Notes under the pieces: model-generated | What the model was told of the DNA's origin: nothing | The model's input: only the letters and a program-made list of their open reading frames with translations | The model's database searches: none | Part shown: piece by piece, positions 7,283 to 40,720 of the stretch | Position numbering within the stretch: position 1 is the first letter of the stretch | Layout: each line of letters starts with the position of its first letter | Translations under genes and position numbers: made by a program | DNA from: an uncultured delta proteobacterium | GTDB taxonomy: Bacteria > Desulfobacterota > Binatia > UBA9968 | Direction: 5' to 3' | Length of the DNA: 64,000 nucleotides | Assembly (NCBI GenBank): GCA_963840855.1 | Contig: CAWJBB010000067.1 | Span: 1-64,000 of the forward strand

Positions 7283-7341
7283 CTTTCAGTATTGCTCGTG
7301 CAGCATTACCTGGTTCTGAGTGTTCCCCCTGACTGGGGAAC

Positions 7342-10300: not shown

Positions 10301-13300
10301 TTCCGTTTGGGCCGCCGGGAGCATGGCTGGTGGCGACGCCATTTTCTCTTTTGTGGGCGCTGTCACCCGTGGTGGCACACTGGATCAGCCTGCCACCCCG
10401 CGCAACCGGGGCTCGGCCTCTTTCGGAAGATGACGCTCGCAGCTTGCGATTAACCGCACGCCGGACCTGGCGATTCTTCGAGACCTTCGTTGGCCCGGAA
10501 GACCACGCCCTTCCTCCCGACAATTTCCAGGAAGAGCCAACACCGGTCGTGGCCCACCGCACGTCGCCGACCAACCTCGGGCTGTATCTCCTTTCCACCA
10601 TCGCGGCGCATGATTTCGGCTGGCTCGGCACCGTGGCTGCAATCGAACGGCTCGAAGCCACACTCGGAACGATGAACGGCCTCGAGCGTTTCCGTGGTCA
10701 CTTTTATAACTGGTATGCCACGCGCGACCTTCGCCCGCTCGATCCTAAATACGTATCCTCGGTCGACAGTGGAAACCTCGCCGGTCACCTCGTCGCGCTC
10801 GGACAGGCGTGCCAGGACCTCATCGACCGCCCACTGCTTGGCCCGCAGGTGCTCGCCGGGATTGCGGACACCATTCTCCTCCTCCGCCAATCGGCACGCG
10901 CGATGGCCGATGACCGGCGCACGCAAACGGTCAGCCGCAAACAACTCGATGAGGCACTCGACGCCCTGACCACGGCACTCAGCCCGGTCCCCGTAACTCC
11001 CGGTGATTGGGTCGTGCGCCTCGCAGAACTCGAGACCCGCGCTTATACCATGGCGGACATTGCGCGCACGCTGACTGCGGAACGGGGCGACCGCGCCGAT
11101 GCAGAGGTGCTCGCCTGGGCGGAGGCCGTGCGCGCGAGCATCGAGAGTCACCTGCGCGATCTCGACATGGTGCTTCCCTGGGCGCGGCTTGTCTTTGGGA
11201 AGACCCTCTCTCATGGCGCCCCGACCCCGGAGCAAGCGTTGGGTTCAACGGCGATCGCGCGTTTTTTTCTCTCGTTCCCGACCCTGGCCGACACGCCGGA
11301 CCGCTACGAGAGCGCCATACACGAACTCACCACTCTCCGCGCGCGCTCGGCTACCGACAGCGCCGCACCGCAGAATGCCCTTACACGAATCGACGCGATC
11401 ATTGATAGTCTCGCGCGTTCTGCCGTAGCCTCCCGAGCGCTGGTCCGCCGCCTTTCGACCCTCGTCCAGCTCACGAAGACAATGTTCGACGCGATGGAGT
11501 TTGGCTTTCTCTTCGATCCGACGCGGAAGCTCTTCTCGATCGGGTACCGCGTTTCCGATAGCAGCCTCGATCCGAGTTGTTACGATCTACTGGCTTCCGA
11601 GGCGCGGCTCACAAGCTTCATCGCCATTGCGAAAGGTGACGTCCCGTCGACCCATTGGTTCCACCTCGGTCGCGCTTTGACTCCCGTAGACCGGGGATCT
11701 GCGCTGGTCTCCTGGTCCGGGTCGATGTTCGAGTACCTCATGCCTGCGCTCGTCATGCGCTCTCCGGCGGGGAGTCTGTTAGCTCAGACATGCGATCTCA
11801 TCGTGCGCCGTCAGAAGAAATATGGAACCGAGCGTGGCGTGCCGTGGGGGGTCTCAGAATCGGCCTATAACGCGCGCGATCTCGAGCTGACCTACCAGTA
11901 CTCGAATTTTGGCGTGCCCGGCCTGGGGCTCAAACGGGGGCTGAGCGAAGATGTGGTCGTAGCCCCTTACGCGACGGCGCTGGCCGCGATGATTGATCCA
12001 GAGGCGGCCGCGGAGAACTTCGTACGTCTCACCGAGGCCGGCGCGAGTGGCCCGTATGGCTTTTACGAGGCGCTCGATTACACGGCCACGCGGGTTCCCG
12101 AAGACCAACGCGTGGCCGTCGTGCGCGCCTACATGGCGCATCATCAGGGGATGTCGCTCGTGGCTCTCACGAACGTCCTCCGCGAGGGCGTCATGCGCGA
12201 GCGCTTTCATGCCGAGCCGCGCATGCAAGCCACCGAGTTGCTGTTGCAGGAACGCACTCCGCGAGACGTCCTGGTCGCCCGGCCCAGGGTCGAGGAGGTC
12301 CGAGCGGTGGCCAACGTCCGCGATCTTGTTCCACCAGTCGTTCGTCGCTTCACTTCCGCGCACGACCCGACGCCCGGCATTCACCTTCTCTCTAACGGGC
12401 GATACGCGGTGATGGTCACGACGGCGGGCTCCGGATACAGCCGTTGGCGCGACCTTACGGTTACACGATGGCGCGAGGACCGCACGCGCGATGCCTGGGG
12501 GACGTACCTTTTCCTTCGCGACGTACACAGCGGCGCGGTCTGGTCGGCCGCATACCAACCGAGCGGGGTCGAACCGGATAGCTATGAAGCGGTCTTTTCC
12601 GAGGATCACGTAGAGATCCGGCGGCGCGATGGCGCGATTGTGACGACGCTTGAAGTCGTCGTTTCGCCGGAGCACGATGCCGAGGTGCGCCGGGTGTCGA
12701 TCACGAACCTGGGAACTCGAACCCGAGAGATCGAGCTGACCTCGTACGCCGAAATCGTGCTGGCGCCGCCCGCAGCGGACGCAGCCCACCCGGCGTTTTC
12801 CAATCTGTTCGTGCAGACGGAATTTGCTCCCGAACTCGGCGCCCTGCTCGCTACGCGCCGGCCACGGTCACACGATGAGCCGCAGGTCTGGGCGGCGCAC
12901 GTAATCGTCGCCGAAGGAGAAACCGTCGGCGAGCTGCAATACGAGACCGACCGCGCGCGGTTTCTCGGCCGCGGACGCGGCATCCGAACGCCGATGTCGG
13001 TCATCGACGGCAACCCACTCTCCAACACGGTCGGCGCAGTACTCGATCCAATCGTCAGCCTCCGGCGCCGCGTTCGGCTTGCGCCGGGAGCCAGCGCGCG
13101 AGTGACGTTCTCGACGCTCATCGCGCCATCGCGCGACGAGGCGCTCGCCCTGGCCGACGAGTACAACAATCCAACGACGTTTGAGCGCGCCGCCACTCTG
13201 GCGTGGACGCGGGCCCAAGTCCAGTTACACCATCTCAGCATCGATCTTGACGAGGCCTACCTCTTTCAAGAACTCGCCGGCCGGATCCTATACTCGGACC

Positions 13301-14445
13301 CCACGCTGCGGCCGTCATCCGCGGTGCTCACAGGCAATACCCGGGGACCTTCGGAACTCTGGCGGCATGGAATTTCCGGCGACATACCGATTGTTCTGGT
13401 CCGAATCGACGAAGCCGAGGATCAGGGAATCGTCCGGCAACTCCTCCGCGCCCACGAATACTGGCGGATGAAACAGTTGGCGGTCGACCTCGTGATCCTG
13501 AACGAACACGCCCCGTCCTACGCTCAAGATCTCCAGGCAGCTCTGGAGGCGCAGGTCCGGACCAGCCAGTCGCGCTTGCGGCGCGAGGGGGATGAACCGT
13601 CCGGAAGCGTGTTTATTCTGCGGGGAGATCTCATTTCAGCCGAGGATCGCATCCTGCTCCAGACCGCCGCGCGGGCTGTGCTCTTGAGCCGCCGCGGCAC
13701 CCTGTCCGAGCAGGTTGTACGTCCGCGATCCGAGGCCGCCTTGGTTCCACTCGCGCAGCGTCTGCCCGAGACAAAATCATCGGATATTTTGCCGCCGCGG
13801 CCCGACCTCGAGTTCTTCAACGGCCTCGGTGGCTTCGCTGCGGATGGCCGTGAGTATGTGACCATTCTAGGCGAGGGCCAGTGGACGCCGGCGCCTTGGA
13901 TCAACGTGATTGCGAACCCTTCCTTTGGCTTCCAGGTTTCTGAGTCGGGCTCGGGTTATACGTGGTCGCTCAACAGCCGTGAGAACCAGCTCACGCCGTG
14001 GTCGAATGACCCGGTCAGCGACTCGCCGGGCGAGACGATATACGTGCGGGATGAAGACAGCGGCGAACTGTGGGGCCCAACGGTGCTGCCGATCCGGGAG
14101 GAGGCCTGGCCCTATACCGCCCGCCACGGCCAGGGTTACAGCCGTTTCGAGCACACATCGCATGGAATCTCGCTCGACCTCCTGCAGTTCGTACCGCTCG
14201 CGGACCCAATTAAGATCTCCCGCCTCACTATCGAGAACCACTCAGGCCGATCCAGACGCCTCTCCGTGACCGCATATGTCGAGTGGGTGCTCGGCGCTTC
14301 GCGGAACGTCTCCGCGCCCTTCATCGTCACTGAGATCGACCCGCCAACAGGAATGATGCTCGCGCGTAATAGCCTGGAACAGCGAGTTCGGTGGCCGCGT
14401 AGCTTTTGCCGACCTGGGCGGGCGCCAGACCGCATGGACGGGTGA
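7342..14445 (+). CDS. ndvB: cyclic beta-1,2-glucan synthase (Cgs/ChvB/NdvB), main part
   Basis: AEWLVDNY, GWERKRGKL, YVITLDADT, LLSHDLFEG, RQHRWARGDWQL, YDLLASEARL motifs; frame lost near 14371. Confidence 0.93.
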   Translation: MIIWVCAPDGREVCGLESLLSRNLLGKNYSEASAFSALEEPIRAELFSAERLEQHGETLAAAQRVTTTPRKARPLLPRVLDNGRVLLESYRAIAQAIREERAIEPAAEWLVDNYHIVDEQVREIRDDLPPGFYRELPKLAEGHLGGYPRVYGLAWAFVAHTDSRFDPEMLRRFVRAYQRVQPLTIGELWAVAITLRVVLVENLRRLAERIVHGRAARQQADAVADRLLGLGGRSTEPAATILGQFEGAPLATAFAVQLVQRLRDQDPVITPALHWLEEHLAAQGTTVDEMVRLEHQQLAAMNVTVRNVITSMRLISAFDWAEFFESVSLVDAILWTDNGFAAPDFETRDRYRRAIEELSRGSQQDELEVARRAVFQAKGVRSKAQEASDPAGDRRGDPGYYLIANGRVAFERELGFRMPIKTWLLRAYVTQATSRYLSTIAIVSGLILALFLVNSGAAEVGFVGLLLLGLLALVPASDLAIALVNREVTELLGPRALPRLELRDGVPADLRTLVVVPTLLTSHAQIAEQIDRLEVHYLANPAGDLRFALLSDWTDAPQETMPGDDELLAATIEGIARLNQRNGAAPDGGERFLLFHRRRGWNESERKWIGWERKRGKLHELNRLLRGATDTSFVPTGGRAPLAASGVRYVITLDADTRLPRGSAARLVGTLAHPLNRPRFDARVGRVVEGYALLQPRVTPTLPTDREGSLFQRIFSGPGGTDPYASAVSDVYQDLFGEGSYIGKGIYDVDAFEAALAGRVPENALLSHDLFEGIFARAGLVTDIEFFDEFPPYYATATARQHRWARGDWQLLPWILGHARDANGDRIRAPIPPISRWKMLDNLRRTLSAPAAFMTLIAGWTLPFASPVIWTTFVLATIAIPPLLPVLTGLIPHRRGISKRSHARAVGTDLVLAASHVGLTVTLLADQAWLMTDAIVRTLFRVYVTRRKLLEWVTAAQAESAFEITLGSVYHRMGGAVVLAAVAAILVPFGPPGAWLVATPFSLLWALSPVVAHWISLPPRATGARPLSEDDARSLRLTARRTWRFFETFVGPEDHALPPDNFQEEPTPVVAHRTSPTNLGLYLLSTIAAHDFGWLGTVAAIERLEATLGTMNGLERFRGHFYNWYATRDLRPLDPKYVSSVDSGNLAGHLVALGQACQDLIDRPLLGPQVLAGIADTILLLRQSARAMADDRRTQTVSRKQLDEALDALTTALSPVPVTPGDWVVRLAELETRAYTMADIARTLTAERGDRADAEVLAWAEAVRASIESHLRDLDMVLPWARLVFGKTLSHGAPTPEQALGSTAIARFFLSFPTLADTPDRYESAIHELTTLRARSATDSAAPQNALTRIDAIIDSLARSAVASRALVRRLSTLVQLTKTMFDAMEFGFLFDPTRKLFSIGYRVSDSSLDPSCYDLLASEARLTSFIAIAKGDVPSTHWFHLGRALTPVDRGSALVSWSGSMFEYLMPALVMRSPAGSLLAQTCDLIVRRQKKYGTERGVPWGVSESAYNARDLELTYQYSNFGVPGLGLKRGLSEDVVVAPYATALAAMIDPEAAAENFVRLTEAGASGPYGFYEALDYTATRVPEDQRVAVVRAYMAHHQGMSLVALTNVLREGVMRERFHAEPRMQATELLLQERTPRDVLVARPRVEEVRAVANVRDLVPPVVRRFTSAHDPTPGIHLLSNGRYAVMVTTAGSGYSRWRDLTVTRWREDRTRDAWGTYLFLRDVHSGAVWSAAYQPSGVEPDSYEAVFSEDHVEIRRRDGAIVTTLEVVVSPEHDAEVRRVSITNLGTRTREIELTSYAEIVLAPPAADAAHPAFSNLFVQTEFAPELGALLATRRPRSHDEPQVWAAHVIVAEGETVGELQYETDRARFLGRGRGIRTPMSVIDGNPLSNTVGAVLDPIVSLRRRVRLAPGASARVTFSTLIAPSRDEALALADEYNNPTTFERAATLAWTRAQVQLHHLSIDLDEAYLFQELAGRILYSDPTLRPSSAVLTGNTRGPSELWRHGISGDIPIVLVRIDEAEDQGIVRQLLRAHEYWRMKQLAVDLVILNEHAPSYAQDLQAALEAQVRTSQSRLRREGDEPSGSVFILRGDLISAEDRILLQTAARAVLLSRRGTLSEQVVRPRSEAALVPLAQRLPETKSSDILPPRPDLEFFNGLGGFAADGREYVTILGEGQWTPAPWINVIANPSFGFQVSESGSGYTWSLNSRENQLTPWSNDPVSDSPGETIYVRDEDSGELWGPTVLPIREEAWPYTARHGQGYSRFEHTSHGISLDLLQFVPLADPIKISRLTIENHSGRSRRLSVTAYVEWVLGASRNVSAPFIVTEIDPPTGMMLARNSLEQRVRWPRSFCRPGRAPDRMDG

Positions 14446-14563
14446 TCGGACGGAGTTTCTTGGCCGCAACGGCACCCTCGACCATCCCGCGGCGCTCGAA
14501 CGGAGAGACCGACTCTCTGGGAAGGTCGGCGCCGGCCTCGACCCATGCGGCGCCCTGCAGGCG

Positions 14564-16207
14564 ATGATGGAGCTACAGGCGGGCGGCCGTGCTGAGATCG
14601 TCTTTTTCCTCGGCGAGGCCGCGACCACGGAAGAGGCGCGGGCGTTGATCACGCGCTACCGCGCGGCTGACCTCGATGAAATCTTGCGCAAGGTCAGGGA
14701 GCATTGGGATGACGTTGTTGGCGCGATTCAGGTGACAACACCTGATCGGGCTATGAACGTGTTGCTCAACCGCTGGCTGCTTTACCAGACGCTGGCATGT
14801 CGGGTCTGGGCGCGAGCGGCCTTTTATCAAGCGGGCGGCGCCTATGGTTTTCGCGATCAGCTTCAAGACGTGATGGCACTCATGGTTGCCAAACGAGACG
14901 TCGCGCGTGCGCAGTTACTGCGAGCCGCCGCGCGGCAGTTCGTGGAGGGTGATGTCCAGCACTGGTGGCATCCGCCGTCCGGCCGGGGCGTTCGGACCCG
15001 TATTTCCGATGATCTTCTATGGCTGCCGTACGCGGTCATCCACTACCTCGCAGTCACGGGCGACGACGCTCTTCTCGACGAGGTCGTTCCCTTCCTCGAC
15101 GGGCCGCCTCTCGCGGCCGGGCAAGACGAGTCGTACTTCGAGCCACAGGTGTCCGCGCAAAGCGGTACCCTGTTCGAGCATTGCGCGCGCGCGCTCGACC
15201 GCAGTCTGGCGGTTGGCAACCACGGCCTTCCGTTCATCGGCACGGGAGACTGGAACGATGGGCTGAACCGGGTCGGATCTGCGGGAAAAGGCGAGAGCGT
15301 GTGGCTCGGCTGGTTTCTTCACACCATACTATGGGAGTTTGCCCGGGTCGCCGACTTGCGCGGCGAGTACCACCGCGCCGAAACGTGGCGACTGCATGTC
15401 AGCGCGCTCAAGGCATCGCTCGAACTAAAGGCGTGGGACGGCGAGTGGTATCGGCGCGGCTACTTTGACGATGGTACCCCGCTCGGCTCCGCCATGAACA
15501 CGGAATGCCGCATCGATTCCATCGCCCAATCTTGGGGGGTCATATCCGGTGCGGCCGAGCGAGCTCGTGGAGCGCGCGCAATGGCGGCGGTCGAGAAACA
15601 CCTCGTTCGTCGCAACGACGGGCTCGTCCTACTCTTCACGCCTCCTTTCGACCGCGCGAGTCCGGACCCTGGATACATCAAAGGATACCTGCCCGGCGTC
15701 CGCGAAAACGGCGGCCAATATACCCATGCAGCGATCTGGTCCGTCCTCGCTTTCGCCGCACTCGGCGACGGCGACAAAGCCGGCGAACTTTTCTCGCTCT
15801 TGAACCCCATCAATCACGCGAGTAGCCGCGCTGGCGTTTACCGGTACAAGGTCGAACCCTATGTCATCGCCGCTGATATTTATGCCGAACCGCCCCACGT
15901 CGGCCGCGGCGGTTGGACGTGGTACACCGGGTCGGCAGGATGGATGTATCGGGCTGGCATCGAGTGGATACTGGGTCTCCGTCTACGGGGCACGATGATG
16001 TATCTCGATCCCTGCATCCCGCGCGCGTGGCCGGGCTTTAAGATCACATTCCGCTATCACTCGTCGCGCTACGAAATCGTCGTCGAGAACCCGCACGGGG
16101 TTGCACGAGGGGTGTCGTCTGTTGAACTCGATGGCGCACCACTCGCAGACGGCATCCCGCTGGCCGATGACGGCGTAACGCACCATGTGCGCGTTGTCCT
16201 TAGGTGA
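14564..16207 (+). CDS. ndvB: cyclic beta-1,2-glucan synthase, C-terminal GH94 phosphorylase part (same gene after a +1 base)
   Basis: FYQAGGAYGFRDQLQD, GTGDWNDG, GVRENGGQYTHAA, WTWYTGSAGW; frame open upstream to about 14372 (AWNSEFGGRVAFADL). Confidence 0.92.
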   Translation: MMELQAGGRAEIVFFLGEAATTEEARALITRYRAADLDEILRKVREHWDDVVGAIQVTTPDRAMNVLLNRWLLYQTLACRVWARAAFYQAGGAYGFRDQLQDVMALMVAKRDVARAQLLRAAARQFVEGDVQHWWHPPSGRGVRTRISDDLLWLPYAVIHYLAVTGDDALLDEVVPFLDGPPLAAGQDESYFEPQVSAQSGTLFEHCARALDRSLAVGNHGLPFIGTGDWNDGLNRVGSAGKGESVWLGWFLHTILWEFARVADLRGEYHRAETWRLHVSALKASLELKAWDGEWYRRGYFDDGTPLGSAMNTECRIDSIAQSWGVISGAAERARGARAMAAVEKHLVRRNDGLVLLFTPPFDRASPDPGYIKGYLPGVRENGGQYTHAAIWSVLAFAALGDGDKAGELFSLLNPINHASSRAGVYRYKVEPYVIAADIYAEPPHVGRGGWTWYTGSAGWMYRAGIEWILGLRLRGTMMYLDPCIPRAWPGFKITFRYHSSRYEIVVENPHGVARGVSSVELDGAPLADGIPLADDGVTHHVRVVLR

Positions 16208-24518: not shown

Positions 24519-24660
24519 TCATTGAAACGGTTGTCCGAACCGCTCGAGATGGGCTACCTCAGAGAGTGTCTTGCGATTTTTCTTTCCTTTGCCGGTGGGC
24601 CGAGCCGGATAGCCAAACGGGATGATCGCCAGCACATCCGATTCATCCGGAATACCAGGA
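24519..24660 (-). pseudogene. nitroreductase C-terminal remnant
   Basis: GIPDESDVLAIIPFGYPARPTGKGKKNRKTLSEVAHLERFGQPFQ*. Confidence 0.65.
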
Positions 24661-24666
24661 GGGTTT

Positions 24667-25099
24667 ATGAAATCATTGATTGCGGGTCTGGCCGTTGCCA
24701 CCCTTTCAGTCTGGATTACGTCGTCGTTTGCCCAGCAAAGGCCAAGATATCCGGTGGATCCTGAGACGAGATGGGCTGTCGGCGCTAAGCCGACACCAGC
24801 CGACGAACTCAAGAAGCAACTCGACAGTGGTACGGTGATGATCATCGATGTTCGGCCGCCGGCCAGTTTTGAAAAAGAAACCATTCCCGGCGCAATCAAT
24901 GTTCCCCTTGAGCAGCTTGAAGGTTATCTGAAAAAGATATCCAAGGACACTTACATCGTCTTCACGTGAGGGAGCGGAGCAATCAAGCTCGCAGGCTGCG
25001 AAGCTAGCTGAAGACCTCGGATTCACCAGCACAACTTTTTGCCCCGTCAGCAAGTGGAAGGAACAGGGTTATCAAGCGGAACCCGGTAAGAAAAAATAA
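24667..25099 (+). CDS. exported rhodanese-like protein, putative selenoprotein (TGA 24967-24969), with an apparent +1 base after the TGA
   Basis: AGGAGG RBS; signal peptide; IIDVRP..FEKETIPGAINVP; IVFT-TGA; the +1 frame continues SSQAAKLAEDLGF...W...GY to TAA at 25099. Confidence 0.7.
24986..25005 (+). promoter_or_regulatory. putative bacterial SECIS hairpin
   Basis: agc-tcgca-[ggc]-tgcga-a-gct; the loop starts with G, 24 nt after the TGA. Confidence 0.5.
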
Positions 25100-25151
25100 T
25101 CTGTAAAACTCGTCAACCGGGTCGATTTTTCGCCATCTGCATCCGAGTATT

Positions 25152-26414
25152 CTAGTGTGATCCCAAATGCACTATCTCCGGGCGAACATGTTCCGGGCGG
25201 ATGCCGAGGCCAACGATGCGGGCGGGGATTCGGCGGAGAAACGGAACTGTGGCAAGCAGCCGGACCGCAAGTGGCGGCTTGACAGGTTTCGTATCACCCA
25301 ATACGCGCGCAATGATCCTGCGCTGCACCGTCACCTGCAGCCACTGGGTTACTCTGGTGGGTAACTCGCGTCGCCGCTGGATCCGGCGCAGATGATCGAC
25401 GGTTACTTGCCCTTCCCGCAGCGGTTTGAACAGAACATTTGCCGCGGCCACTGCATCCTGAATCGCGAGATTTATGCCGACGCCGCCCACCGGGGACATT
25501 GCGTGCGCCGCGTCGCCAATACACAGCAGGCCCGGGCGAAACCACTCTAACAACCGGTCCACGCGAACCGTCAAGAGCTTCACGTCATCCCAGCTGCTGA
25601 GCTCCCCTACCCTGTCTTTCGCGTACGGCGCCAGCCGCACTATCTCCCCTCGAAAAGCTTCGAATCCTTGCCGGCGCATCTCTTCGAATCGGCCTTTGGG
25701 AATGACGTAACCGCATTGCCAATACTCGCCTCGATTGATCGTGACGAAGATCCTGCCGCTATCGAATCTCCCCATAGTCCCGACCGGATCGTCCGGCCTT
25801 CGGCTCAGGCGGAACCACAGCACATCCATCGGCGCTCCGAATTCTTTCACCTTCAAACCGGCCTTATCGCGCACCATCGAATTGCGGCCGTCCGCGCCCA
25901 CGACGACGTCAGCGCGTACTTCGACCGTCCCCTCGAGAGTATTTGCGCGAACACCAATCACGCGCCCCGACTCTTCCACGAGGCTGATTACCTCAGCCTC
26001 CATCATAAGATTGAATTTGGTGTAGCGAGCCGCTTGCTCGGCGAGGAAGTTCAGAAAATCCCACTGTGGCATCAAGGCGATAAAGCGGCAGCGGGTCGGC
26101 AGGTGTCTGAAGTCTGCAATGGTCACCTGCATTTGACCGACTTGCGCCCCCAGCTCGTAGACTTCCTGATGCGGCAGTCTCAGAAACTCCTCGAGCAACC
26201 CAAGCTCGCACATCACCTCGAGCGTCGATGGGTGAATCGTATCGCCGCGAAAATCGCGCAGGAAATCCGCGTGCTTTTCAAGAACCAAAACTTCGACGCC
26301 GGCGCGCGCAAGCAGGTAACCCAGCATCATCCCGGCTGGCCCGCCCCCGGCGATGCAGCAGTCCACGGATACCGTCTTAGACTCGCCCGCCCGAATTCGT
26401 GTATCGGTGGTCAT
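25152..26414 (-). CDS. FAD-dependent oxidoreductase (UbiH/aromatic monooxygenase-like)
   Basis: GGGPAG, DFRGDTIHPST, VVGADG, IGDAAHAMSPVGGVGINLAIQDA. Confidence 0.9.
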   Translation of the reverse strand: MTTDTRIRAGESKTVSVDCCIAGGGPAGMMLGYLLARAGVEVLVLEKHADFLRDFRGDTIHPSTLEVMCELGLLEEFLRLPHQEVYELGAQVGQMQVTIADFRHLPTRCRFIALMPQWDFLNFLAEQAARYTKFNLMMEAEVISLVEESGRVIGVRANTLEGTVEVRADVVVGADGRNSMVRDKAGLKVKEFGAPMDVLWFRLSRRPDDPVGTMGRFDSGRIFVTINRGEYWQCGYVIPKGRFEEMRRQGFEAFRGEIVRLAPYAKDRVGELSSWDDVKLLTVRVDRLLEWFRPGLLCIGDAAHAMSPVGGVGINLAIQDAVAAANVLFKPLREGQVTVDHLRRIQRRRELPTRVTQWLQVTVQRRIIARVLGDTKPVKPPLAVRLLATVPFLRRIPARIVGLGIRPEHVRPEIVHLGSH

Positions 26415-27960: not shown

Positions 27961-29685
27961 ATGTCTGATCCCGATCTCATTCGCCTGCGCTCGATGCTCG
28001 CCGCTTTGGCGCCGCAGGGCCGCGCTGCGCTGCTGCCGGCCTTGCAGGCTGCGCAGCAATTCCACGGCTGGCTTCCCGAAGCCGTTGCGGCAGAAGTGGG
28101 CCGGGCCTTGGGGGTAGCGCTCGCCGACGTACACGGCGTCATCGATTTCTATGCCATGCTCTCTCGCCAGCCCATGGGCCGAACCGTCGCGCGTGTCTGT
28201 AGCGCGCCCGTATGCGCCCTCGCCGGGGCCGAAAGACTGGTGGACGCCCTGTGCCGCCACTTGCAGATGGAGCCGGGTGAAGTCAGCTCGGATGGTGAGT
28301 TCACCGTCGAGCATGCTCCCTGCCTGGGCTTGTGCGATCACGCGCCAGCGCTCCTTGTGGGCGAAACCGCTCTCGGGCCTGCGCGTCCCGAGCAAGCAAC
28401 CGAGATCTGCGCGCGCGCCGGTGCAAGACCGATGAGCTTTGTCGGGGGCGATATCCGGATTCTCACGAGCAATTGCGGTCAAGGTCATTCCACGTCTCTT
28501 GCCGACTACAGGAGTGGCGGCGGTTATGCCGGACTGACGAAGGCTTTGACGATGACGCCGCAGGATGTGCTCGCCGAGGTGAAGGCTGCGGGCTTGGTCG
28601 GCCGCGGCGGCGCGGCATTTCCAACCGGAATCAAGTGGGAGGGAGCGGCGAAAGCACTGGGCCATCCCAAGTACATCGTGTGCAACGCCGACGAATCCGA
28701 ACCCGGCACGTTTAAAGACCGCATTCTCATGGAGGAAGACCCGCACCGCACCATTGAAGGGATGATCATCGCGGCCCACGCCGTGGGCGCGCACCGCGGT
28801 TACTTCTACGTTCGCGGCGAGTATCCTTATGCTTTCAAGGTTATGGGCGATGCGCTGGAGGAGGCGCGGCAGGCCGGCGTCATTGGCGGAAATATCCTCG
28901 GCTCCGGATTGGACTTCGATATTGAGATGCGCCTAGGCGCCGGCGCCTACATTTGCGGCGAAGAAACCGCGCTGTTGGAATCCATCGAGGGCAAGCGTGG
29001 CTTCCCGCGCATCAAGCCGCCCTTTCCCACCACCCACGGGTTATTCGGCAAGCCCACCGTGATCAATAACGTGGAGACATTCTGCAACGTGCCGCTGATC
29101 CTCGAACGGGGCGCCGCAGAGTATCGGAAAATGGGGACAGACCGCTCGCCCGGTCCAAAGCTGTTTTGCGTGTCGGGCCAGATACAGAAACCCGGACTTT
29201 ACGAGGTGACGTTCGGCGCCACCTTGCGCCATGTTCTGTTTGATCTCGCGGGCGGACTGAAGCAGGGGCGCAAGCTTCAAGCGGTGCTCTTGGGCGGCGC
29301 GGCGGGCGCGTTTGCCACTGAGAAAGACTTGGACGTGATCTTGTCGTTTGAGCACCTGGGCGCCGCGGGCTTACCGCTCGGCTCCGGCGCAGTCATGGTC
29401 TTCGACGATAGCGCGGACCTGCGCGACGTGCTCAAGCGCATAGGGCAATTCTTTGCTGACGAAAGCTGCGGCAAATGCTATCCCTGCCAGCTCGGCGCGC
29501 GTCGCCAGTATGAAATTCTCGACCGGGCCGGAGCCGGATTTCCCGTTGCCGGCGACCGGGAACGCTTAGCGGATGTGGGTGGCACGATGATCGACGCCTC
29601 CCTGTGCGGCTTGGGCCAGACGGCCGCCACGGCGGTCTTGAGCGCGCTGAAGTTGTGGCCGGAGATGTTTGAGAGCAGAAAATAG
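27961..29685 (+). CDS. NuoE-NuoF-like fused NADH-binding subunit of NAD-dependent formate dehydrogenase
   Basis: N-terminal VCSAPVC...CLGLC 2Fe-2S; [48 protein letters not shown]. Confidence 0.92.
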
Positions 29686-29689
29686 CGGT

Positions 29690-29750
29690 CTCGTGTCCGT
29701 GGCTCGTGCTCTTGCATCCGAACGATCACGCAGCACGATCACGAGCACGA
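29690..29750. repeat. hairpin of tandem hexamer repeats (CTCGTG / CACGAG-like)
   Basis: ctcgtgtccgtggctcgtgctc ... cacgcagcacgatcacgagcacga inside the fdh operon spacer. Confidence 0.65.
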
Positions 29751-29768
29751 TTTGCAGCAAGGAAGTAT

Positions 29769-30470
29769 ATGGCTGATGTCACACTCACCATCGATGGCGC
29801 TGCTGTCGCCGTGTCTTCGGACACGACGATACTCAAAGCCGCACAACAGCTCGGCCGGCATATTCCTACCATTTGCTATCACGAGCACTGTACGGCTAAT
29901 GGTCTCTGCCGCATCTGCGTCGTCGAAGTCGACGGCGTGAAGCCGCTTGTGCCGGCGTGTTTGAGCCGGGTGAGCCAAGGAATGAAAGTCTCTACCTCGA
30001 GCGCGCGTGCCGAGCGCAGCCGCCGCACCATCCTGGAGATGCTCGCCTCCGCTGTGGATCTTACTCAGGCGCCGGAGATTCAAATGTTCATGGAGGAAAA
30101 TCGCGCCGACCCCGCGCGCTTTCCCGGCGCCGAGCGGCGCGAGTATCCGGTGCTCGATGACAACCCGATGTATATCCGGGACTATTCCAAGTGCATCCTG
30201 TGCTGGCGCTGCGTTCAGGTGTGCGCCGACGACGCGCAGTTTACCTACGCGATCAACTTCAAAGGGCGCGGTTTTAAAACCGGCATCGGCACCTTCTTTG
30301 ACAAGCCCATGCCTGAAACAAGCTGCGTATTTTGCGGCCAGTGCGTGGGGGTCTGCCCCACCGGCGCGCTCAAGTCCAAGCGCGAGTGGCTGCTCGAGCA
30401 GGGATCAACGTTGGATGAAATTATGCAGGCAACCAGGGGCGGAAAAAAGCGTCGGAGGAAGTCCCCATGA
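29769..30470 (+). CDS. Fe-S subunit (2Fe-2S plus two 4Fe-4S), NuoG/FdsA N-terminal-like
   Basis: IPTICY...GLCRICVVE...PAC; [11 protein letters not shown]; [12 protein letters not shown]. Confidence 0.9.
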
Positions 30471-32629
30471 TCGCGCCCGATCGCATCGTCGCGACCACAT
30501 GCCCCTACTGCGGCGTGGGATGCAACCTGGAGCTGCACATCAAGGACGACTACGTCTACAAAGTGACGTCGCCGTTTGACGCGGTGGTCAACCACGGCAA
30601 CCTGTGCGTCAAAGGACGTTTCGGTTACGATTTCATTTACAACAAGGACCGGGTGACGACGCCGCTTATTCGCAAGACAGCGCAGGCGCCTGGCGCGCGC
30701 ACCCAGGCCTTCGACCGCGACCAGTGGCGCGAGGTCTCCTGGGACGAGGCCCTCGATTACACCGCCGGCCGGTTGATCGAGATTTTCAAGCGCGATGGCG
30801 CAGACGCCATGGCGGTCTACTGCTGCGCCAAAGCAACCAACGAGGACAACTATCTCCTGCAGAAGCTGTTCCGCGCCCTGTTCCGTACCAATAACGTGGA
30901 TCACTGCACCCGCTTGTGCCATGCCGGCTCGGTGGTCGCGCTGCAAATGGCGATCGGCTCCTCGGCCATGAGCAACACCGCCGCCGAGGTCATTCACAGC
31001 GACGTTTTTCTCGTGACCGGCTCCAACACGGCCGAGACTCATCCGATCATTGCGCTGCAAATGAAGGCGGCCGTGGCCAACCACGGCGCCAAGCTCATCG
31101 TCGTGGATCCCCGGCGGGTGGAGATGGTCGACTGGGCTGCGCTCTGGTTGCCCGAGAAGCCGGGCACCGACGTGCCGCTCTTTTCCGCCATGGCGCATGT
31201 CATCATCAAGGAGCGGCTTTATAACCAGGATTTCATCGAGCGGCGCACCGAAGGTTTCAGAGACTTCTCCAAATCAATGGAGAAATTCACCCCCGCATAC
31301 GCCGAGGCGATTTCCGGCGTGGACCGCAATCTGATCGTCGAGGCGGCCCGGATGTACGCCACGGCAAAGAACGCGGGGATTTATTGGGCGCTGGGTATTC
31401 CAGAGCATTCGCACGGCACCGACAACGCGATGTCCCTCATCCACCTGGCGCTGCTCACCGGCCACATCGGCCGCAAAGGCACCGGTCTCAATCCGCTGCG
31501 CGGACAAAACAACGTGCAGGGCGCGTCGGATTCCGGCGCCATGCCATGGCACTATCCGGGTTATCAGCGGGTCGACGACGAAGCGGCGGCGCGCAAATTC
31601 GAGCAGGCTTGGCAGAGCGAGCCCGGCGCGCTGAACCGCAAGCTGGGGCTGACGACAACCGAGATCATGAGCGCGGTCAGGCCGGGCGGGGTGCGCGCTC
31701 TTCACATCATGGGCGAGAATCCGATGATGTCCGAGCCCAACCTCAACCACACGCGCCATATGATCGAGCAGTTGGAGTTCCTGGTGGCGCAGGATTTGTT
31801 CATCAACGAGTCCGGCGCCTATGCCGACGTCTTCCTGCCGGCGGCTTCCTGGGCGGAGAAGGAGGGCACGTTTACCAATACCGACCGCCGCGTCCAACGC
31901 GTGCGCAAGGCGCTGGAGCCGCGCGGCCAGTCGCGGCCCGATTGGGAAATTATCTGTGGTCTTGCCGAGCGCATCGAGAAGCGGCTTGGCCGTCCGCAGA
32001 CAGCCTTCTGGGCATACCAGAGCCCAGCCGAAGTGCTCGAAGAGATGGGCCGTGTGGTTCCTGAATATGCCGGAGTGAAATATCGGCGCATCGAAAACCA
32101 GGGCTTGCAGACGCCGGTGTGGGATGACAACCATCCCGGCACGCCCTATCTCTTCGCTGAAACTTTTCCCAGCGGCAAGGGCAAGTTCCACCCCCTCGAG
32201 TACGTGCCGTCGGTGGAGATGCCGGACGATGAATACCCTTTCATCCTCACAACCGGACGCCTGCTCGAACACTGGCACGGCGGCACCCTCACGCGCCATT
32301 CGAAGCTCGACGAGCTCTATCCCGAGGCGCGCATCGAAATAAATCCAGCGGATGCCGCCCGCCTCAAGATCGAAGACGGAGAATCGGTGCGCGTCTCGTC
32401 GCGGCGCGGCTCCATCGTCCTGCGCGCCTGGGTGACACAGCGAACAACCGTGGGCGTGGTCTTCATCCCCATGCATTTTGCCGAAGCCGCCGCGAACCTG
32501 CTCACCATCGACGCCCTGGATCCGCTGGCCAAGATTCCTGAGTACAAGGCCTGCGCAGTGCGGGTCGTACCCGCGGACAAGGAACAACTAGCGCGGCCAG
32601 AGGGAAAAGTGGAAAGGGGGAGATACTAG
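30467..32629 (+). CDS. fdhF: formate dehydrogenase alpha subunit (Mo/W-bisPGD, Cys ligand)
   Basis: [61 protein letters not shown]. Confidence 0.93.
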
Positions 32630-37407: not shown

Positions 37408-38305
37408 ATATCTTTTGCGGCAGAGCTTTTTTCAACGCTGCGCGCGGGATCTTGTAACGGTTATAACTCCAATTGTATTGACTTGGACAGCGTCGCACCA
37501 GGTCTTCGATGACGCGATTGAGCGCAGCCTCGTCAAAATCTTCCTCTGGCACCGGCTGATACTCGATGCGGTAGCCCTTGCCGCGCGGCAGGCGCTCGGC
37601 AAAGCAAGCGATCAATGCCGCCCCCGTAGCGCGCTGGAGTTTCTTGACCAGCGTCATGGTATAAGCAGGCCTGCCGAAGAAATCAGCCCACACTCCCCCT
37701 TCCGAATTCGGCGCCTGGTCCGGCGGCAGCGCGACTCCTTCGCCCCGTTTCAAAGCCCGCAAGAGCTTCTCGACACCTTTGAAGTCAGTGGCGGCCATTG
37801 AAATTTGCGCGCTTTGACCTCCTGACAACATGATAGGATGGCGCCACGGCTCCCGCGGCGGGCGATACAAAAGCGTGAGGGGCACATGTTGTCCGGTATA
37901 GCGCACGGCAATGGGAAATGAACCGAGATGAGGCAAGAGAAAAATGATACCTTTGCCGCGCCGATGCGCTTTCTCCACGAGATCCAAACCATGGCACTCG
38001 GCACAGAGACGATCGAACTCCGCTTGCGGCGCGTACCATCCTTTGAACCATTCGATGACGCTCTTACCCGCCTGGCTGATGGATTCCTTCAGTAGCGCCC
38101 GGTATTCTATTTCGCTCGAGCATATTCCGCTGCCCTGGAGACTATCCCGCAGCCGTTTGGCTTCTCTGCGCGAGCACCAATATGTGCACCAGCCGACAGT
38201 AACGCCAACGCGGTGGTACCAGCGCATCGGCACTCGACTTATGAATTTCAGAAAAGCAATTAGCATGGAGAGTACTGCGGAGTTCAAAGCGTTCAAGCCG
38301 TTCAA
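37406..38305 (-). CDS. lipid A late acyltransferase (LpxL/HtrB-like); start uncertain
   Basis: GKGIIFLLPHLG, LYRPP, LPPDQAP, WADFFGRPAYTMTL, PSQYNWSYNRYK. Confidence 0.85.
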   Translation of the reverse strand: MNGLNALNSAVLSMLIAFLKFISRVPMRWYHRVGVTVGWCTYWCSRREAKRLRDSLQGSGICSSEIEYRALLKESISQAGKSVIEWFKGWYAPQAEFDRLCAECHGLDLVEKAHRRGKGIIFLLPHLGSFPIAVRYTGQHVPLTLLYRPPREPWRHPIMLSGGQSAQISMAATDFKGVEKLLRALKRGEGVALPPDQAPNSEGGVWADFFGRPAYTMTLVKKLQRATGAALIACFAERLPRGKGYRIEYQPVPEEDFDEAALNRVIEDLVRRCPSQYNWSYNRYKIPRAALKKALPQKI

Positions 38306-38377
38306 TACGATTTCAACGAATACGGCCTGGGCGGTTCAATCGCATGGACATCCTAATTCAACTGCGGTAAGGAACCA

Positions 38378-38560
38378 ACTAGTGTGGTGTCCCAGAAATT
38401 CATCGGCACAGTCGGTACTCGTTCTTTATCATTTCCGCGCAAGCGGGAATCCAGGGGTTTTTTTTCTGCTTTCCTGGATTCCGGCTCTCGCGTGCTCCCG
38501 CCCGCTCGGCCAAAATGACGCCGGAATTGTGTCAACGAACTTACGGGACACCATGCTAGT
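38378..38560. mobile_element. MITE-like element with terminal inverted repeats enclosing a REP-like palindrome
   Basis: actagtgtggtgtccc...gggacaccatgctagt ends; internal tcatttccgcgcaagcgggaatccagg...cctggattcc...aatgac. Confidence 0.6.
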
Positions 38561-38599
38561 TCGCGCTTTCTCCACGAAAAGAACTTACGGAGGTTTCCC

Positions 38600-40720
38600 G
38601 TGCCTAGCAATCAACCTTTAGCGCCGCTTTTTGAGGCCGATCGCATCGCGATTATCGGCGCCAGCGAGCGCAATCACTACGCCGTCAACGTTTTTAAGAA
38701 TCTCCAGAACTTCGGCTTCGATATCACCAAAGTCGTGCCGATCAATCCCGGCCGCCCGGAGGTTTTCGGCCTCAAAGCTTATCCAAGCATCGTCGACGTC
38801 CCGGGAGACATTCCTTTGGCGGTCATCGCTGTCAATACCAAGAGCGTCGTTTCCATCGTCGAAGAAGCCGGCAAGAAAGGAGTCAAGGCCGGCGTGATCT
38901 TTGCCGACGGTTTTGCCGAAGGCGGAGACGCAGGAAGGCAATTGCAAAACGATCTCACCGCCGCCGCCAGAGGCGCGAATCTGAAATTACTCGGACCCAA
39001 TTGCATGGGCTTTGTTTCGATGCGCGCGAAGCTCGGCATCTGGGGCGGCGAGCTGCCGAAAAATATCCGCCCCGGCAACATCGGCTGCATCTTTCAAAGC
39101 AGCGGCATGATGAACCTGCTGATGAATTTCGGCGTCAGACGTGGCCTCGGCTTCCATGTCTGTGCCAGCGGCGGCAACGAGATTATTTTGAACTCGGCGG
39201 ATTATCTCGCCTATCAGGCGGACTGTCCAGAGATCGACGTCATCGCGAGCTATTTTGAAGCCGCCCCCAAGGAGCCGCAGCGGTTTGCCGCGGCGTTGGA
39301 CCGCGCCATCGCCAACGGCAAGAGCGTGTTGATTCTTCGCGCCGGTAGAAGCGATCGCGCCAAACGCAACGTCATCGCCCACACCGGCCAGCTCGCCGGC
39401 TCCGCCGCCACGTGGGACGCTTTTTTCGAGCAACACGGCGCGATCATCGTCAACGACCTCGACGACCTGATCGATACCACCGCGCTTTTCGCCGGCGCCA
39501 AGCTACGGCCCGACAGGCATGAACGCGGCGTCGGGCTGATTACAATTTCCGGCGGCGATTGCACCTTGCTCTCCGACATCGCGGATCAAGAGGGCGTCAC
39601 TGTGACGGACTTGAGCCCTGAAACACAAAAAGTCATGGTCGATAGCCTGGAAAAGCCGACATTGCTCGGAAACCCTCTCGATATCGAAGACCTCCAGCGC
39701 ATGAAGCCGGAAGCGTTCGATCTGTGCCTGGAAAAATTCTTTCGAGAACCAAAGATCGACATGCTCGGCATCCGGCTGAATCTACCGGAAACCATCACGC
39801 CTTCGGCGGACAAGCTTTACACCCAGGTGTCCGATTTGAGCCGGCAAACTGATAAGCGTGTCTTCATTCTCACCCGCGCCACGGAGCCGCCCGCCGAAAT
39901 TTGGTATGACAAACTCAATAGCCTCGATCTCACGTTTACCGGCGATTACCGCAAATCGCTCCGCGCCATGAACCGCTTGCGCACGAACGAGCGCGACCGC
40001 GCCATCGGCCGCTTCTTGCCGGCGACTCGCCCGGGAGCCGCGCCTATTCGGCGGCAGTTGGGAAGTGGTGTCTTGACCTACCGCGAGACGGACAAATTGT
40101 TGCAAGACTACGGCGTCCCGTTGGCGCCATCGGTGCTGGCGCGGTCCGCCGGCGAAGCCGCGCAAGCGGCGGAAAAACTCGGCTACCCATGCGTGTTGAA
40201 AGTCGCTTCCGTGGACATTCCGCACAAGACGGAATTCGGCGCGCTGCGCCTGGGACTGGACAGTCGCATAGCGGTTGAAAGAGCATACGAAGAAATGCTC
40301 ACCAACGTTCGCAGGCAAAAACCGGACGCCAAAATCGAAGGCGTCTTGGTACAAAAACAGATCAAAGGCGTCGAATGTCTGCTCGGCACTTCGCGCGACG
40401 ACCAGCTTGGCCCCACGTTGGTCATGGGTTTAGGCGGCGTGTTTGTCGAAATCCTCGCCGACGTGCAAATTCGCATTCCACCCATCAGCAGCGCCGAAGC
40501 CAGGCGCGCGCTGGAAAGTCTGAAGGGCGCTAAAATTTTCTCCGGTGTGCGCGGCGCGCCTCCGGTCGATATCGATGCGCTGGCCGATATGGCCGCGCGA
40601 CTCTCGTGGCTTGCGTTCGATTACGGCGACGAGATTGCGGAGTTTGATCTCAATCCCGTGGTCGTCTTGCCCAAAGGGCAGGGCGCGTTCGCCGTCGACG
40701 CGTTGCTTGTCGCGCGCTAA
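38600..40720 (+). CDS. acetate--CoA ligase (ADP-forming acyl-CoA synthetase) family, fused alpha/beta
   Basis: IAIIGAS, LLGPNCMG, AHTGQLAG, GNPLD, C-terminal ATP-grasp with HKTE.G and EFDLNP. Confidence 0.9.
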   Translation: MPSNQPLAPLFEADRIAIIGASERNHYAVNVFKNLQNFGFDITKVVPINPGRPEVFGLKAYPSIVDVPGDIPLAVIAVNTKSVVSIVEEAGKKGVKAGVIFADGFAEGGDAGRQLQNDLTAAARGANLKLLGPNCMGFVSMRAKLGIWGGELPKNIRPGNIGCIFQSSGMMNLLMNFGVRRGLGFHVCASGGNEIILNSADYLAYQADCPEIDVIASYFEAAPKEPQRFAAALDRAIANGKSVLILRAGRSDRAKRNVIAHTGQLAGSAATWDAFFEQHGAIIVNDLDDLIDTTALFAGAKLRPDRHERGVGLITISGGDCTLLSDIADQEGVTVTDLSPETQKVMVDSLEKPTLLGNPLDIEDLQRMKPEAFDLCLEKFFREPKIDMLGIRLNLPETITPSADKLYTQVSDLSRQTDKRVFILTRATEPPAEIWYDKLNSLDLTFTGDYRKSLRAMNRLRTNERDRAIGRFLPATRPGAAPIRRQLGSGVLTYRETDKLLQDYGVPLAPSVLARSAGEAAQAAEKLGYPCVLKVASVDIPHKTEFGALRLGLDSRIAVERAYEEMLTNVRRQKPDAKIEGVLVQKQIKGVECLLGTSRDDQLGPTLVMGLGGVFVEILADVQIRIPPISSAEARRALESLKGAKIFSGVRGAPPVDIDALADMAARLSWLAFDYGDEIAEFDLNPVVVLPKGQGAFAVDALLVAR

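Follow-up and report, generated by a model that had tools for sequence, protein, structure and literature searches.

An open reading frame (ORF) that ends in TGA exactly where rhodaneses carry their active-site cysteine raises the question of whether this codon is a stop or is read as selenocysteine (Sec). Such an ORF starts at position 24667 of the DNA stretch analysed here (the window: positions 1 to 64,000 of the forward strand of contig CAWJBB010000067.1, assembly GCA_963840855.1, from an uncultured delta proteobacterium of the Binatia). The original prediction, made from the letters of the sequence, took it for a hidden exported selenoprotein with a hairpin behind the UGA that resembles a selenocysteine insertion sequence (SECIS), and required in addition that one base between the two be an error. 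Comparison with homologous genes supports this interpretation for the gene family, the copy in the window being frame-broken. Our reading, to which we assign a probability of about two in three, is that the window gene would code for an exported single-domain rhodanese of ~143 residues whose catalytic Sec is specified by UGA 24967–24969, and that the extra base is an error of the assembly and not biology.

The UGA codon in the window and across the homologous genes

The ATG at 24667 opens an ORF of 100 codons whose translation ends with ...Y-I-V-F-T and which is closed by TGA 24967–24969. The 100 residues match the Pfam Rhodanese profile PF00581 with an E value of 4.1e-11 and 43.7 bits (cut-off 22.2). 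The match ends at profile position 66 (positions 2–66 of 102) and the domain is therefore cut at the active-site loop, where the original prediction had placed the stop. Translation of the frame that runs from 24965 yields ...S-S-S-Q-A-A-K-L-A-E-D-L-G-F-T-S-T-T-F-C-P-V-S-K-W-K-E-Q-G-Y... up to the stop codon TAA 25097–25099. This peptide of the +1 frame is, judged by its sequence, the missing end of the rhodanese domain, which resumes after removal of one base as had been proposed. The elements of the locus are, from 5′ to 3′ (nt, nucleotides):

24657–24662, + strand: Shine-Dalgarno-like AGGAGG, read directly from the sequence, which ends 4 nt before the ATG
24667–24732, + strand: start codon and predicted signal peptide of the Sec-translocon type, 22 residues (Lys 2, hydrophobic core 3–17, ...S-F-A followed by Q-Q)
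24733–24966, + strand: mature N-terminal part, with the lead-in R-Y-P-V-D-P..W-A-V-G-A and then the rhodanese domain to the strand I-V-F-T (PF00581 match and protein alignment A2)
24967–24969, + strand: UGA, putatively read as Sec, at the catalytic position of the rhodanese active-site loop (TGA in 99 of 107 distinct homologous genes)
24970–24985, + strand: 16-nt spacer with one extra base somewhere in 24979–24982 (15 nt in intact relatives)
24986–25005, + strand: putative SECIS hairpin with stems of 3 bp and 5 bp, a GGC loop and a bulged A at 25002 (conserved in Sec forms)
24983–25099, + strand: C-terminal part of the rhodanese domain, read in the +1 frame (in 86 of 99 distinct TGA forms this peptide continues in frame after the TGA)
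25040–25042, + strand: codon of a second conserved Cys in an F-C-P motif (F124, C125 and P126, the same in all Sec and Cys forms of alignment A2)
25108–25132, + strand: weak terminator-like stem and T-run just 3′ of the TAA (one site in the terminator scan against 0.8 expected, not above chance)

A protein search with the 100-residue part gave 339 candidates and 328 relatives (cluster representatives) at E ≤ 0.001. Among the 120 relatives listed, 115 have a length of 99–101 residues and 118 end with ...F-T. This shared end means that gene callers stop at the same place everywhere, and the truncation that the original prediction expected of annotation pipelines is what the databases hold. The codon itself was inspected in DNA loci: six from the genome of the window and its relatives, 80 from metagenomes and 62 from species-representative genomes (37 family members, L121–L157, analysed further). 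The catalytic position was reached in 120 of the 123 loci examined, with TGA in 111, TGC in six and CGA in three. After removal of duplicates there are 107 distinct genes, of which 99 have TGA, six TGC and two CGA. The same frame continues through S-S-Q-A-A-K..., F-C-P and W-K to a stop ~43 codons later in 86 of the 99 distinct TGA genes; the remaining 13 comprise seven that run off their contig too early to be judged and six, the window copy included, that are broken. In the window copy the post-UGA conservation is in frame only once one base is removed.

The Cys encoded in the six TGC loci aligns at the UGA column, and the Cys forms P0125–P0136 (149 amino acids) are contiguous proteins with Cys at the Sec position. 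The motif U-x-x-G is found in 69 of 69 distinct Sec forms, codon +3 always being Gly. The UGA is thus conserved in the family, Cys homologues occur at the same column and the protein sequence is conserved past the codon in one frame, as the homologue comparison suggested with the original prediction was expected to reveal. These are the three classical comparative signs of a selenoprotein, and they indicate that family members are translated past the UGA. When the C-terminal 44 residues were used as query, only 16 full-length proteins were recovered. Two of them, P0122 and P0124, have the TGA translated as W, presumably by a gene caller set to code 4 or 25; these proteins would be full-length but wrong.

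The named relatives are metagenome-assembled genomes (MAGs). At 60–90% identity they are labelled Candidatus Binatia, "delta proteobacterium" or Thermodesulfobacteriota, and at 45–55% identity they are MAGs of Acidobacteriota, Vicinamibacterales or Terriglobia. Soil is the label of many metagenome runs in which parts of the sequence occur. Within the genus the gene has a patchy distribution, as no orthologue was found with this query in the genomes G001 or G002. In a quick tree of 84 rows (rows with stops or incomplete ends excluded) the Cys label needs three changes, and the starred branches force only one.

Two side observations concern individual family members. In L022 (the same as L122) and L068 the Sec codon is replaced by CGA (Arg) and the hairpin is kept letter for letter; the genome that hosts L022 (G005) still has selA. 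The sequences suggest that the change from TGA to CGA was recent, and it should abolish catalysis. The genes L141 (labelled Verrucomicrobiia) and L133 (labelled Syntrophobacter sp.) are identical or nearly so to Binatia-type ones, that of L141 being identical to three metagenome loci. Their distant taxonomic labels possibly reflect mis-binning rather than gene transfer.

The hairpin downstream of the UGA

The hairpin starts 16 nt after the UGA in the window (15 nt in relatives). It is formed by AGC (24986–24988) and TCGCA (24989–24993) on the 5′ side, the loop GGC (24994–24996), and TGCGA (24997–25001), the bulged A (25002) and GCT (25003–25005) on the 3′ side. The distance between UGA and loop is 24 nt, and G is the first loop base; the original description of this structure is correct in every detail. 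It agrees with the general form of a bacterial SECIS, a stem-loop just after the UGA with G in a small apical loop. Its 15-mer core occurs once in the window, where 0.01 occurrences are expected (a match in one of 100 shuffles), and once in the genome (7.1 Mb). Of the 68 aligned distinct Sec forms, 67–68 retain the five core pairs, and 59 retain the three outer pairs together with the bulged A. In nine sequences of a distant clade the outer stem is encoded with the other Ser codon family and with Ile for Leu, which leads to a continuous helix without bulge. L056 has a double synonymous change from C-G to U-A that preserves a pair (one compensatory cell).

The strongest evidence that the hairpin acts as a SECIS is provided by synonymous sites. 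The third bases of codons +7 to +10 (Ser, Gln, Ala, Ala), which belong to the core, are the same in all 69 distinct Sec forms, and the four-fold sites just outside the core (codons +3, +13 and +17) have three or four different bases in Sec forms. In the six Cys forms, by contrast, the third bases of the core codons vary:

Codon +7 (Ser): A in three, T in one, G in one, C in one
Codon +8 (Gln): A in four, G in two
Codon +9 (Ala): A in two, G in two, C in two
Codon +10 (Ala): G in four, A in two

A constraint at the nucleotide level is seen only together with the TGA, and this is what a SECIS predicts. The conservation pattern argues that the hairpin was selected together with the TGA, and it favours the SECIS identity originally proposed.

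The extra base, the selenocysteine machinery and alternative readings

TGA and hairpin are 15 nt apart in all 68 aligned distinct Sec forms and 16 nt apart in the window; the one-base correction foreseen at the outset is indeed required. L041 is the intact gene closest to the window copy, with 96% nucleotide identity along the gene, and relative to it the sole indel is one inserted base at +14 (24981–24982). The site is bridged by two DNA contigs of other samples, each of which omits one base at 24979; one of the two differs otherwise from the window by a single letter over 127 nt. This near-identical contig reads U-G-S-G-Q-S-S-S-Q (derived from the contig comparison); if one A is removed from the window instead, it reads U-G-S-G-A-S-S-S-Q as in L041. 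Both loop alleles occur in relatives (L133 has the Q form), and the letters of the window suggest a superposition of the Q and A alleles.

Frames are interrupted elsewhere in the window as well. A GH94-type gene with supersandwich and catalytic domains (7333–16207, + strand) is split in two frames at 14357–14445, and the split falls inside one Pfam domain, with profile positions 1–179 on one side and 173–251 on the other. An NAD-linked formate-dehydrogenase-like cluster (27961–32629, + strand) consists of a NuoE/NuoF-like fusion, a Fer2/Fer4 piece and a molybdopterin piece. The last two (fdsA-like) are in different frames with a 52-nt overlap (junction 30419–30470), possibly a third frameshift or else two genuinely separate genes. 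Among the relatives, L078, L080, L096, L097, L099, L100, L102 and L116 have single-base indels on both sides of the TGA when compared to copies at least 95% identical, five of them in L096. Such indels in metagenome contigs look like assembly noise in strain-rich soil populations. Two metatranscriptome runs cover both sides of the TGA and no RNA contig bridges it; DNA is possible in such libraries and we consider this result neutral. The extra base is absent from every intact relative and from both bridging contigs. It is probably an assembly or consensus error, as the original prediction had assumed, and this is a better explanation than a true pseudogene.

The assembly (93 contigs, 94% complete, 8.3% contaminated) encodes selA, selB and selD together on one contig (C1 of genome G000). 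selA is intact and scores 616 bits, over the cut-off. selD (37592–38518, minus strand) scores 383 bits, also over the cut-off, and is an open frame but for one in-frame TGA, which reads G-U-A-A-K-L-G-P at the known Sec/Cys site of SelD. With this codon at that site the organism encodes at least one other selenoprotein, SelD itself. selB (38583–40521, minus strand) is found in two frames (207.6 and 193 bits) and has, when compared to two relatives of the same genus, exactly one extra base at about 39984 of the contig; in the genomes G002, G004 and G021 it is one open frame of 646–664 residues. tRNA-Sec scores at least 64 bits in 27 of 36 relatives (25 of 34 when the unpublished genomes G009 and G015 are set aside) and is over the cut-off in 29 of 37 genomes according to the tool's own tally. 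Judged by these gene predictions, the lineage as a whole decodes Sec. The inspection of the genome for Sec machinery, suggested with the original prediction, had a divided outcome: selA, selD with its in-frame TGA and selB are present, but selB is frame-broken and selC was not found in the 94%-complete assembly.

Several points weigh against a gene that is functional and merely misassembled in the window. The best Rfam score for tRNA-Sec in the 94%-complete assembly is 43 bits versus a cut-off of 47, the matches being tRNA-Ser, and none of the 39 tRNAs identified by Aragorn in the assembly is for Sec. A lineage that is losing Sec decoding would look alike, with a frame-broken selB and no tRNA-Sec. 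Indel errors do not affect every gene of the assembly, since rpoB and rpoC are intact. None of the public runs searched had more than 18% of the sampled words, and the case on the extra base is built on relatives and on contigs from other samples. The window-type hairpin is unremarkable in folding energy relative to shuffled sequences (z +0.54 for the window and +0.72 for L041) and differs from the minimum-energy fold; the distant-type hairpin alone stands out energetically (z −2.33). RNAalifold retains only the invariant 5-bp core with zero covarying pairs. Covariation is thin, with five core pairs that never vary and a single compensatory cell, and no Rfam family matches at E up to 10 over 24600–25200. 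No conserved neighbouring genes hint at a pathway: none of the neighbouring ORFs of the window recurs beside the gene in the 37 named relatives, and clustering of the flanks gave one variable-position binding-protein-like ORF, in 11 loci, and nothing else. The gene stands alone and no operon partner emerges. Sec incorporation, export and sulfurtransferase activity of the family are predictions obtained by computation.

If the family is genuine but the copy of this strain is a real pseudogene, created by a true one-base insertion and possibly part of a decaying Sec trait, the frameshift in the assembly, the extra base of selB relative to the same genus, the tRNA-Sec not found, the intact rpoB and rpoC and the patchy occurrence of the gene in the genus (G001 and G002) would all be accounted for. 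We nevertheless regard this as unlikely. selA is intact and selD retains its open frame with the in-frame TGA, genes unrelated to Sec (the GH94-type and fdsA-like ones) are split too, and the extra base is lacking in the near-identical contig from another sample (one other difference in 127 nt). Apart from the insertion the gene has no lesion, and it shares 96% identity with an intact relative. Since only 39 tRNAs were assembled, the missing selC fits the general incompleteness of the assembly.

The other explanations concern the codon itself. That TGA is an ordinary stop, with a truncated rhodanese-like product of 100 residues and an untranslated downstream frame, is how gene callers annotate at least 118 of the 120 listed database proteins, and the single-sequence folding energy gives the window-type hairpin no support. 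This is already contradicted by the comparative data, as far as sequences can tell, and we hold it to be highly improbable: the 43 codons past the TGA are conserved in frame in 86 of 99 distinct TGA forms and complete the rhodanese fold, the Cys forms are contiguous proteins, termination at the TGA loses the catalytic loop and two secondary-structure elements of the domain, and the synonymous sites of the hairpin are frozen only where the TGA is present. Hardly more credible is a UGA read by means other than Sec, be it through a genetic code in which TGA means Trp or Gly, through near-cognate read-through or, in this copy, through a programmed +1 frameshift. The W in the deposited translations of P0122 and P0124 and the change of frame that the window does require would agree with it. 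The rpoB, rpoC and selA genes of the genome have no in-frame stops, so that TGA is not a general sense codon; an exchange of Sec and Cys at the catalytic position, and a hairpin linked to the TGA, are peculiar to Sec decoding; and the frame change is seen in none of the 68 aligned relatives, which leaves no conserved programmed shift.

The predicted protein and its relation to known rhodanese families

Our reading of the locus as an exported Sec-rhodanese agrees with the properties of its full-length relatives. L041 scores 63.3 bits against PF00581 (cut-off 22.2). The AlphaFold model of this 93%-identical relative has a predicted local distance difference test (pLDDT) score of 84.5 and a predicted template modelling (pTM) score of 0.75, with a strand at residues 97–100, U101 directly after it and a helix at 105–116. 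Foldseek and profile searches found only rhodanese domains (PspE, TSTD1, GlpE and persulfide-dioxygenase fusions), the Foldseek E values being 6e-7 and weaker. Residues 1–20 of the model are disordered (pLDDT about 50), as expected of a signal peptide. Kyte-Doolittle means over 11 residues are 1.5–2.2 over residues 1–12 and fall below 0 from residue 15, and the ...F-A-Q-Q junction is found in 11 of 15 rows of alignment A2. From the look of the N-terminus, the protein would be exported through the Sec translocon to the periplasm and cleaved after ...S-F-A.

Alignment A2 displays a family-specific lead-in (R-Y-P-V-D-P..W-A-V-G-A) and the active-site loop U-G-(T/S)-G-x-x-S, with the Acidobacteriota clade having U-(T/N)-(T/S)-G-R-x-S instead. 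The second Cys noticed in the original prediction lies in the motif F-C-P and is invariant in the alignment. In terms of the rhodanese fold, F-C-P would replace the loop that follows the strand next to the one of the active site.

In the mechanism that we propose, SelB with Sec-tRNA would be recruited by the small hairpin inside the coding sequence, 15 nt (here 16 nt) after the UGA, and translation would then run on to TAA 25099. The product would be exported and its signal peptide cleaved. By analogy with the Cys of PspE- and GlpE-type rhodaneses, the Sec in the loop U-G-(T/S)-G-x-x-S may take up sulfane sulfur as an Se-S intermediate and pass it on. One may speculate further that the invariant Cys of F-C-P is a resolving partner that forms an Se-S bond with Sec, which would make the two a redox-active pair. 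A bolder extension is that Sec101 and this Cys constitute a selenenylsulfide redox enzyme of the cell envelope, exported by the Sec translocon and going beyond a sulfur carrier. We find it doubtful; if true, the enzyme could have a redox role, for instance in reducing or carrying sulfane sulfur, thiosulfate or selenium species, would be widespread in soil Binatia and Acidobacteriota, and would represent an undescribed functional class of rhodanese and of exported selenoprotein.

Rhodaneses with Sec are known as predictions, and the novelty of the present family is lower than originally claimed. They were first reported from computational screens, including that of the Sargasso Sea set (PMC1088965), and related entries are found in the tables of PMC1088965, PMC1976440, PMC2398784 and PMC9312934. 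UxxG Sec-rhodaneses appear in a 2022 review (PMC9312934), and the table of a 2026 review (PMC13188914) lists five forms, of which forms 2 and 4 have the UxxG motif in a PF00581 protein. As described there, forms 2 and 4 share with the window family a single rhodanese domain, a catalytic Sec and the UxxG motif (here U-G-(T/S)-G). UxxG Sec-rhodaneses also share with it a SECIS right after the UGA with a small apical loop containing G, and are all predicted by computation only. The entries for forms 2 and 4, compared by description only, make no mention of a signal peptide, of the F-C-P Cys or of soil Binatia and Acidobacteriota hosts. The Sec-rhodaneses of marine metagenomes assigned to COG2897 (SseA-type; PMC1088965, PMC1976440, PMC2398784) likewise have Sec in place of the catalytic Cys, but are listed with a two-domain architecture and belong to another subfamily and another habitat. 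The name "SseA" given automatically by the Joint Genome Institute (JGI) to truncated proteins of the present family is a label only.

Among the closest known counterparts is PspE of Escherichia coli (PDB 2jtq), a small exported single-domain rhodanese whose chain is matched by the family profile (E 1.7e-11). PspE is a periplasmic thiosulfate sulfurtransferase and is likely a suitable working model, with a persulfide-type intermediate on the loop residue. It uses Cys, whereas the window family has Sec and adds the conserved N-terminal lead-in and the F-C-P Cys. Membership in the PspE families was rejected (NF007627, 37.6 bits versus a cut-off of 102; TIGR02981, 34.1 versus 126.3). No NCBIfam model is over its cut-off. 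The best match there is NF041203 (rhodanese_LYCAU, the "form 3" rhodanese-related (seleno)protein; E 1.9e-9), also a rhodanese that contains Sec; membership was rejected at 37.3 bits versus a cut-off of 115 and on the motif, U-G-(T/S)-G and not CxU. The Sec of NF041203 sits two residues after a Cys while that of the window family is the first residue of the loop. Human TSTD1 (PDB 6bev; Foldseek E 2.5e-6, TM-score 0.77 normalised on the target, 31% identity) and GlpE (PDB 1gmx; Foldseek E 7.9e-5) have the same fold, but are cytosolic Cys enzymes without signal peptide and without the F-C-P Cys. In the literature, to the extent covered by the accessible text of the papers, no description was found of selenoproteins from Binatota/Binatia or of a periplasmic Sec-rhodanese with signal peptide; the supplementary tables of selenoproteome papers may list the clade. 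A clade of systematically truncated soil Sec-rhodaneses appears to be new, Sec-rhodaneses with the UxxG motif being already catalogued.

The single-base insertions in several genes of the assembly matter for other readings of the window that depend on frames. For the family, the analysis corrects a systematic annotation error: of the 120 relatives listed, 118 end at the Sec codon without their catalytic loop, often under the label "SseA". The correction is solid, though it would not surprise a specialist in selenoproteins. It adds to the Sec-rhodaneses an abundant and probably exported clade hosted by uncultured soil lineages (Binatia-type and Acidobacteriota MAGs), whose natural Sec, Cys and even Arg variants are ready material for asking what selenium buys a rhodanese.

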